From the sequence record PP925835.1: a DNA stretch of 64,000 bases. The stretch is one strand, 5' to 3'. Positions 31,791 to 32,951 of the stretch are shown one piece after another (positions within the stretch are counted from its first letter, which is position 1; every line of letters starts with the position of its first letter). Source of the stretch: Escherichia phage Nernie. Position numbers and translations under genes: made by a program. The notes beneath the pieces were generated by a model. It saw nothing but the letters and a program-made list of their open reading frames with translations. It ran no database searches and was not told the origin of the DNA.

Positions 31791-32951
31791 ATGTTTACAG
31801 TATTCGGCAATCAAATCTTCCTGCGTCAGAAGTCTGGTACAGATATTGAAGAAATTCCAGCAGGAACTTTTGGTGTAGGTGTTACTCAAAGTGGTGAGTT
31901 CTTCCTGTATCCTAAAAACGATATGGAAGTCCCTTCAGTAACATACGGTGATACTGATGATAAATCAGAACGTATTATCAAGACGTTCCTTAGCCGCAAA
32001 GGTAAAAACACAGGTGTTCTCCTTGAGGGTACGAAGGGTAGCGGTAAAACTTTGCAAGCTAAAATGCTGTCTTCTGCTCTTCGTGAAATGGGTATTCCTA
32101 CTATTTCTATCGGTAGTGCTTTTAATGGCGAAGGCTTTATCAATTTTATGTCTAAAATCACACAACCTGTGATGATTATGATCGATGAATTTGATAAACT
32201 GTATGCTGAAAAAGATGCACAGGATGGCTTGCTTACCCTGCTGGATGGTGTAGGTGGCTACGACAAGCTGTTTGTATTGACTAAAAACGATGGTTATGTA
32301 TCAGAATTTTTGCGTAATCGTCCTAGCCGTATTTTCTACAGCTTTAGCTATAAGAAACTACCTAAAGCTACTATGGATGACTATCTGGCTAAAAATCTGG
32401 AGAACAAAGCCTTTTTACCAGATTTTGAAACGCTTTATAATCTTTCCGTGGACTTGAACTTTGATATTGTTCAGTCATTAGTAGAAGAACTTAACCGTTA
32501 CCCTAATGACAAATTCTCTGATGCACTTGCATTAATGGGTATCAGTATTACTGAACACCGCTATGCTGCGAAAGAAGTTAAACTTCTGAAAGTTAACGGT
32601 GTAGATCGTACAGGAGATGTTTCGTCAGATACAGATATTGACGGTATGACAGCACAAGGTTTGTTTAGCGGTAATCGTTATGTTGTAGCTGTAGATCATA
32701 AGTCAGGAGAAGAGCATCTTCCTGAAATGGAAGGAGTCGTTACCGTAGAAGATAAAGACGAAGAAGGTGACTACTACTGGGGTGTAGACCGTATCTTGCT
32801 GACGTATGATGAAAAACACATCCGTACAATGGGTGGTGACGGTTATCACTTTGTGTTCACCGATGATAAAGGCAACAACATTGAAGTTGTTATTAAAAAC
32901 AAAGAGCGTAAAAACTACACAGAGTATGTGTTTGGTGGTCGTTCTTACTAA
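31791..32951 (+). CDS. P-loop ATPase, paralog of 16454-17581
   Basis: Walker A GTKGSGKT, Walker B IMIDEFDK, shared LLTLLDG...LTKN...NRPSRIFY. Confidence 0.65.
   Translation: MFTVFGNQIFLRQKSGTDIEEIPAGTFGVGVTQSGEFFLYPKNDMEVPSVTYGDTDDKSERIIKTFLSRKGKNTGVLLEGTKGSGKTLQAKMLSSALREMGIPTISIGSAFNGEGFINFMSKITQPVMIMIDEFDKLYAEKDAQDGLLTLLDGVGGYDKLFVLTKNDGYVSEFLRNRPSRIFYSFSYKKLPKATMDDYLAKNLENKAFLPDFETLYNLSVDLNFDIVQSLVEELNRYPNDKFSDALALMGISITEHRYAAKEVKLLKVNGVDRTGDVSSDTDIDGMTAQGLFSGNRYVVAVDHKSGEEHLPEMEGVVTVEDKDEEGDYYWGVDRILLTYDEKHIRTMGGDGYHFVFTDDKGNNIEVVIKNKERKNYTEYVFGGRSY

Follow-up and report, generated by a model that had tools for sequence, protein, structure and literature searches.

A diverged pair of classical AAA ATPases of the PHROG 2376 family in a phi92-like Escherichia phage

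The closest described counterparts of the two genes considered here are those encoding gp190 (YP_009012522) and gp221 (YP_009012554) of phage phi92; they are the same genes, with no sequence difference, and the phi92 records annotate both products as 'ATPase; predicted AAA domain fold; putative ATPase or Zn metalloprotease', giving no clade, architecture, paralogy or function. The pair analyzed in this work lies in a stretch of 64,000 nucleotides from Escherichia phage Nernie (sequence record PP925835.1), hereafter the window, whose sequence identifies the phage as a Justusliebigvirus, an Escherichia myovirus of phi92-like type; over 3 kb at the site under study, identity to phi92 and its relatives is 99.0-99.5%.

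A first-pass annotation of the window had described the two genes as diverged paralogous P-loop ATPases with swapped C-terminal modules, an arrangement that it called unusual, and had left their family unplaced. The genes and their paralogy were already visible in public annotation, AAA ATPases are a known kind of protein, and the pair itself is a tidy, fairly ordinary duplication, not a new kind of system. What is new here is the placement of both proteins in the classical AAA clade, their three-domain architecture, the homology of their fast-evolving C-terminal domains, the identification of the ancestral and the added copy, and evidence that the family is large and essentially phage-specific. 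We are highly confident in the statements made below on the identity, architecture and evolution of the gene pair.

The gene pair and its classical AAA motor

Both open reading frames (ORFs) exist exactly where the first-pass annotation had drawn them:

31791..32951, plus strand: paralogue A (ORF A), 386 residues, 43 kDa, isoelectric point (pI) 4.9, orthologue of phi92 gp190 'ATPase'
16454..17581, minus strand: paralogue B (ORF B), 375 residues, 42 kDa, pI 4.9, orthologue of phi92 gp221 'ATPase', ancestral locus

At the protein level the two are 99-100% identical to their counterparts in phi92-like phages. A and B are genuine paralogues that have diverged while keeping their P-loop ATPase motifs intact: BLASTP aligns them over 375 columns at 39% identity (E=1e-81), and in the first ~250 residues identity reaches 47% (E=3e-84). 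In the last ~125-135 residues pairwise similarity is not significant (best E=0.028, 18 bits), and identity over the C-terminal region is only about 16%. The likeness thus extends far beyond generic Walker motifs, and the observation of a paralogous pair is confirmed. The motifs GTKGSGKT, LLTLLDG, LTKN.G(F/Y)(I/V)SEF and NRPSR(V/I)FY(N/S)F, listed as common to the two proteins, are indeed found in both, whereas the Walker B and N-terminal patterns listed with them are only approximate: Walker B reads MIDEFDK in A and IFDEFDK in B, and the N-terminal pattern reads AGTFGVGVTQSGEFFL in A and PGFYTVSRDPLGNYFL in B.

The family that could not be placed by eye is PHROG 2376 ('ATPase'), within the classical AAA clade. 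The PHROG 2376 profile matches A with E=2.3e-104 (residues 1-376 on profile positions 2-359 of 363) and B with E=6.6e-108 (residues 1-367 on positions 1-357), and both proteins pass the Pfam AAA model PF00004 (29.4 bits for A and 38.9 bits for B, with a cut-off of 21.2). Both belong to the classical clade that includes p97/Cdc48, Bcs1, Rpt/Mpa and FtsH. In fact, the family profile, compared with the PDB, retrieved classical AAA proteins only, with p97/Cdc48 at ~1e-11 followed by VAT, Rix7/NVL, Drg1, PEX1 and Msp1; the best PDB matches of the B model in Foldseek were Bcs1 (E=1e-9), YjoB, proteasomal Rpt and FtsH, and single-sequence PDB searches with A and B gave weak classical-AAA matches.

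Conservation of the motor motifs was measured in an alignment of 255 distinct family members. Invariant positions, in the numbering of A, are G80, G83, G85 and K86 of Walker A, E133 of Walker B, the sensor-1 residue N166, the arginines R177 and R180, and D225 of the lid; D132 (99%), P178 (98%) and F224 (98%) are nearly so. Walker A is GTKGSGKT and Walker B is (I/F)DEFD in both A and B. In the second region of homology the invariant asparagine (N166 in A, N169 in B) is followed by N-R-P-(S/G)-R, in which both arginines are invariant and which reads exactly RPGR in 49% of the family; we take this stretch, TKN...SEF..NRP(S/G)R, to be the ATN...RPGR second region of homology of classical AAA proteins, and the (S/N)FD(V/I)(V/I)Q..VEE of the lid is presumably their GFSGAD-type lid motif. 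The pore-loop position 111 is aromatic in 86% of the family (F111 in A, Y114 in B) and the residue two positions further is G (61%) or D (26%), with a middle residue that is polar, not hydrophobic as in Ar-phi-Gly; in a phmmer alignment the AFNG of the family stands opposite the KWVG of fidgetin-like 1.

The AlphaFold2 models (predicted local distance difference test, pLDDT, 83.6 for A and 88.1 for B) predict the same three-part build: residues ~1-50 form an N-terminal beta domain of five strands, residues ~56-250 make up the AAA core and its lid of four helices, and a beta-rich C-terminal domain (C-domain) of ~120 residues follows. Strands and helices in the following list are those of the models:

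31791..31940, plus strand: small N-terminal beta domain of A, residues 1-50 (strands 2-5, 8-11, 17-19, 26-31, 37-41; pLDDT 88-94)
31956..32360, plus strand: AAA alpha/beta core of A, residues 56-190, with Walker A G80-T87 (32028-32051), F111, Walker B D132-E133, sensor-1 N166, and R177 and R180 of the second region of homology
32361..32540, plus strand: helical lid of A, residues 191-250 (helices 192-202, 206-218, 224-236, 242-248), with F224, D225 and E232-E233-x-N235
32562..32948, plus strand: acidic C-terminal beta domain of A, residues 258-386, net charge -10 (strands 261-268, 297-302, 332-337, 344-348, 351-357, 363-370)
17426..17581, minus strand: small N-terminal beta domain of B, residues 1-52 (strands 3-6, 9-12, 18-20, 27-32, 38-43)
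17003..17416, minus strand: AAA core of B, residues 56-193, with Walker A G83-T90 (17312-17335), Y114, Walker B D135-E136 (17174-17179), sensor-1 N169, and R180 and R183 of the second region of homology
16823..17002, minus strand: helical lid of B, residues 194-253 (helices 195-205, 209-221, 227-239, 245-252)
16457..16804, minus strand: acidic C-terminal beta domain of B, residues 260-375, net charge -6, homologous to that of A (strands 262-269, 272-274, 276-280, 297-301, 327-331, 337-341, 345-352, 355-363)

Other assignments were considered and set aside. The FtsH-type Zn metalloprotease offered as an alternative in the phi92 annotation is unsupported because a protease domain of the M41 or HExxH kind is missing: no Pfam M41 match was obtained, HExxH was absent from both proteins on inspection, the C-terminal domain is all beta, and the N-terminus is a soluble beta domain. 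As for the STAND NTPases, B passes nSTAND3 narrowly (29.3 against 27.2 bits) over the P-loop core only (residues 75-170) and A fails it (19.0 bits); neither protein reaches the nSTAND5 cut-off, the lid in the models is that of a classical AAA protein with neither a STAND arm nor a sensor, and the RPxR trans motif is present. A phmmer match between B residues 201-291 and the effector domain of influenza A NS1, found in several PDB entries (best E=8e-4), was judged a chance match because it spans the boundary between lid and C-domain. Models from NCBIfam and PADLOC gave only sub-threshold P-loop matches for A and B, with no assignment and no link to a defence system.

C-terminal domains, duplication and the PHROG 2376 family

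The first-pass annotation had given the two proteins different C-terminal stretches of ~120 residues. These are far more diverged than the rest of the chains, as it had seen, but profiles and models indicate one quickly diverging homologous domain, not two different modules. Profiles of the C-domains of clade A (gp190), clade B (gp221) and an intermediate clade I (P0041-46) were compared by hhalign, which linked A to I (probability 95.6%, E=1.2e-8), I to B (94.1%, E=1.3e-7) and A to B directly (70%, E=4e-5), all three alignments being collinear over ~100 of 120 columns. The joint alignment has common landmarks, namely an invariant N-G, an acidic DE(D/E)GD loop, GG(K/H)x(V/F) and a C-terminal aromatic residue; the order of strands and helices is predicted alike in the two models, and BFVD models of distant members of the family can be aligned with the A model over 390-428 columns. 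Compared with PDB sequences and Pfam, a profile built from 14 C-domains retrieved no credible relatives, and whole-chain fold searches were dominated by the AAA core.

The same steep gradient exists within each clade, where orthologues are 88% identical in the N-terminal 250 residues and ~49% identical in the C-domain, as expected from rapid divergence in place. Over all pairs, the C-domain has diverged 4.6 times as much as the AAA core in clade A and 2.3 times in clade B, and the N-domain 2.5 and 1.6 times, respectively. Ratios of nonsynonymous to synonymous substitution rates (dN/dS) were estimated by pairwise NG86 on the unsaturated pairs, the deeper ones being saturated in dS; they are ~0-0.02 in the core and 0.05-0.15 in the C-domain, 0.05-0.14 for A alone; the C-domain is therefore less constrained yet under purifying selection. 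These pairwise ratios gave no signal of gene-wide positive selection, the signature of an arms race.

A neighbour-joining tree on 244 conserved columns separates a group made up of A, I and B from the jumbo-phage clade (bootstrap 74%), with 100% support for clade A, 71% for A+I and 100% for B plus P0048; both copies thus arose within the rV5/phi92-like lineage. Phapecoctavirus, in the same subfamily, has a single copy, of B type, followed by an 'endonuclease' just as gp221 is followed by gp222; the adjacency is that of Phapecoctavirus vB_Ec-G1. Because of this synteny gp221 is placed at the ancestral locus, and gp190, beside nrdG, is the added copy.

Two places for the family in one genome are less unusual than first supposed: both genes were already annotated as ATPase in phi92, and ~65 of the 302 family-carrying phage records hold two places, the other ~237 being single-copy. 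The two-copy records, among those listed, are all phi92-like phages or Klebsiella relatives, and in every one of them gp190 is accompanied by a gp221-type copy. Moreover, one IMG/VR contig (L017, L020) has both copies at 73-74% protein identity to those of the window, so both have been kept through substantial divergence; this retention, together with the low dN/dS, argues that both copies are functional.

The 302 records come from a tblastn search of 50,697 phage records. The carriers include rV5- and phAPEC8-like phages; the jumbo phages GAP32, Serratia BF, XbC2 and Atu_ph07; Salmonella phage 7-11; Aeromonas and Acinetobacter phages; Bacillus and Lactobacillus herelleviruses; large lactococcal phages; Staphylococcus siphoviruses; and crAss-like phages. 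An exhaustive HMMER search started from B gave 3833 cluster representatives (clustering at 50% identity) with E<=1e-3, of which 1083 reached E<=1e-30; the matches nearly always stopped near residue 250-280. A pattern scan found at least 328 family loci in IMG/VR viral contigs and only 33 in 185,579 bacterial and archaeal species (one genome each), 31 of them in contigs of metagenome-assembled genomes and 2 in isolates; the family is therefore essentially phage-specific. Literature searches found no functional study of any PHROG 2376 member. With its more than 1000 50%-identity clusters, PHROG 2376 ranks among the larger phage-specific enzyme families that lack a known function.

A possible protein-remodelling role and its alternatives

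The best overall explanation, towards which we lean without great assurance, is that A and B are an intact pair of classical AAA paralogues that would form rings and remodel proteins, their targets being set by the peripheral domains. Judged from their motifs, both proteins keep every catalytic and inter-subunit element of the classical AAA motor, and they differ mostly in the two peripheral domains. On the model of p97/Cdc48, Rpt/Mpa, Bcs1 and FtsH, each protein would assemble into a ring in which ATP hydrolysis, driven by trans-acting arginine fingers, would move the conserved aromatic pore loop; this loop could grip a protein substrate and remodel or unfold it, and the fast-evolving N- and C-terminal domains may pick the target or partner. 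The protein-remodelling mechanism as such, argued from analogy, we regard as an even case. Since divergence after the duplication is found mainly in the N- and C-domains, the two copies probably have different targets and would act on them early in infection or in its middle phase; the first-pass annotation had suggested paired functions with different substrate specificity, and on the sequences this is plausible. The acidity of the C-domain, seen in 95% of family members (median net charge -7), points to a protein rather than a nucleic-acid target.

Because PHROG 2376 is a classical-type AAA machine, like p97, FtsH and the proteasomal ATPases, the hypothesis that it remodels proteins during infection is testable. 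The phi92 pair is a convenient test system: the motors of the two proteins are near-identical, their peripheral domains have diverged, and the phage, one of E. coli, can be cultivated.

Counter-defence or host takeover, a special case of the remodelling model, would have the ATPases dismantle or unfold specific host proteins, for example immune complexes or DNA-binding proteins drawn by the acidic C-domain, the two paralogues corresponding to two targets. A bacterial precedent for such an activity is Trip13, which disassembles HORMA-CD-NTase complexes. We consider this role unlikely on present evidence. The dN/dS of the C-domain is that of relaxed purifying selection, and no PADLOC model matches beyond P-loop noise. 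Neighbourhood links are loose as well: among the clustered ORFs of 77 IMG/VR neighbourhoods no conserved partner gene was found, the top neighbour being shared by at most 17 loci and none standing at a fixed position. The commonest neighbours are a phosphatase, rIIA, rIIB, nicotinamide phosphoribosyltransferase, a cytidylyltransferase/Nudix protein and an exonuclease, and early regions of large lytic phages gather accessory genes of all kinds. The same idea extended to the whole of PHROG 2376, as phage AAA unfoldases that dismantle host defence complexes or DNA-binding and nucleoid proteins, with the C- and N-domains as target recognition and phi92-like phages neutralising two targets, is about as unlikely; if true, it would define a widespread ATP-driven class of counter-defence or host-takeover factors, from crAss-like phages to herelleviruses and jumbo phages.

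A different role, as an accessory AAA+ protein of DNA replication or recombination (helicase loader, clamp-loader-like or initiator-like) acting on DNA or replisome proteins, seems to us improbable. It draws on weak matches to clamp-loader and DnaC-like PHROGs, on NCBIfam matches to Hda, IstB and RuvB, and on context, since gp190 sits in a block of nrd genes with a UvrD-like helicase, the crAss-like homologue lies between primase and exonuclease, and 8 of the 77 IMG/VR neighbourhoods hold a member of an exonuclease family. Against this, the PHROG matches (E=1e-8 to 1e-6) compare with 1e-108 for PHROG 2376, and the NCBIfam matches cover the P-loop core only and fall far under their cut-offs (Hda 29.8 against 194.8 bits, IstB 19.9 against 200, and RFC, also matched, ~13 against 280-303). 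Moreover, the classical RPxR second region of homology and the pore-loop aromatic are present, classical AAA remodellers alone make up the best profile and structure matches, the accessory domains are acidic, and the context is not conserved across phages.

It is more doubtful still that the two paralogues act together in a hetero-oligomeric ring, like Pex1/Pex6, Rpt1-6 or Yta10/Yta12, instead of separately. Such a ring would be consistent with the gp221-type copy carried by all the two-copy records listed (gp221-type copies also occur alone) and with the interface motifs, arginine fingers and Walker B, kept in both paralogues. The genes are, however, 14.2 kb apart, on opposite strands, in divergent blocks, each with its own terminator-like hairpin, and a single copy is the norm of the family, so homo-oligomers must be functional.

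Finally, a duplicated ATPase with non-homologous C-terminal modules swapped in, as the first-pass annotation had it, would fit the non-significant pairwise BLAST and the low identity of the C-termini, but it is highly improbable in view of the collinear hhalign links, direct and through clade I, the shared motifs and predicted order of secondary structure, the identity gradient repeated within clades, and a PHROG 2376 profile that spans both proteins in a single stretch.

Genomic surroundings and comparison with known systems

A and B stand in two blocks whose transcription diverges from a switch point near 19,140-19,160. Both have candidate ribosome-binding sites, AGGAG preceding A by 7 nt and GGGG preceding B by 5 nt, and consensus scans gave the following matches:

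32958..32979, plus strand: terminator-like hairpin with a 9-bp stem and a T-rich tail, 7 nt past the stop codon of A
16417..16438, minus strand: terminator-like hairpin with a 9-bp stem, 16 nt past the stop codon of B
31655..31683, plus strand: sigma-70-like promoter match, TTGACA-17-TATGAT (11/12), ~108 nt ahead of A and within the 3' end of nrdG

As promoter- and terminator-like matches are not enriched over shuffled sequence, they are suggestive only.

Downstream of B, on the minus strand (15207-16379), lies a gene for a 390-residue homologue of the phi92 gp222 'endonuclease', with three CapR-homology domains (E=3e-43) and a T5orf172 domain; CapR has been described elsewhere (bioRxiv 10.1101/2020.11.28.402263). 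The domain composition of this gp222 homologue suggests a homing-endonuclease-like architecture. The next gene (14655-15206, minus strand) encodes a 183-residue homologue of phi92 gp223, which is annotated in phi92 only as conserved hypothetical and matches the NADAR domain (PF08719, E=1.5e-36). This type of domain is linked to the reversal of ADP-ribosylation.

On the other side, nrdD (29474-31303, plus strand) is one uninterrupted ORF of 609 residues; the phi92 record splits it into two ORFs and adds a 'spliced variant' whose gap is ~246 nt, and the phage of the window is therefore without the phi92 insertion. An Rfam scan of the whole window found no intron or other RNA family at gathering thresholds. 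The phi92 record also places a 'hypothetical tRNA' on the opposite strand inside gp190 (about 32430-32520 in the window); ARAGORN found no tRNA across all 64 kb, and this feature is therefore probably spurious.

In unrelated phages, rIIA is near a family homologue in 15 of the 77 loci and rIIB in 13. Nicotinamide phosphoribosyltransferase is also near the homologue in 15 loci, 9 of which have it directly upstream, and is accompanied by a cytidylyltransferase/Nudix enzyme; the homologue is thus loosely associated with an NAD-salvage module in unrelated phages. In Salmonella phage 7-11 (L005) it is near NAD-salvage genes, and in Bacillus phage Deep Blue it is found among small early genes. Four records named 'Campylobacter phage' with host C. 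jejuni (MG065639, MG065645, MG065656 and MG065689) show 98.8% identity to the E. coli phi92-like sequence of the window over 3 kb and the same genome size, and look like mislabelling or phage-stock contamination.

Among known systems, the bacterial Trip13/Pch2-like ATPase of type III CBASS (PDB 6p8v) shares 14% identity with the phage proteins; its N-domain differs, it is without the C-terminal beta domain, and no HORMA link was found for the phage proteins, so that the resemblance is a lead and not evidence of membership. The likeness to Bcs1, the mitochondrial AAA translocase, and to Bacillus subtilis YjoB is confined to ~200-250 residues, and the specific N-terminal domain and membrane anchor of Bcs1 are absent from the phage proteins. 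Compared with the classical remodellers (Cdc48/p97/VAT, Rix7/NVL, Rpt/PAN/Mpa and the AAA module of FtsH), to which identity is only 14-21%, the PHROG 2376 proteins have a single AAA module and are without coiled coil, transmembrane segment or protease domain; their pore loop is Ar-polar-(G/D) where that of the remodellers is Ar-phi-G, and they carry an acidic C-terminal beta domain of ~120 residues of their own.

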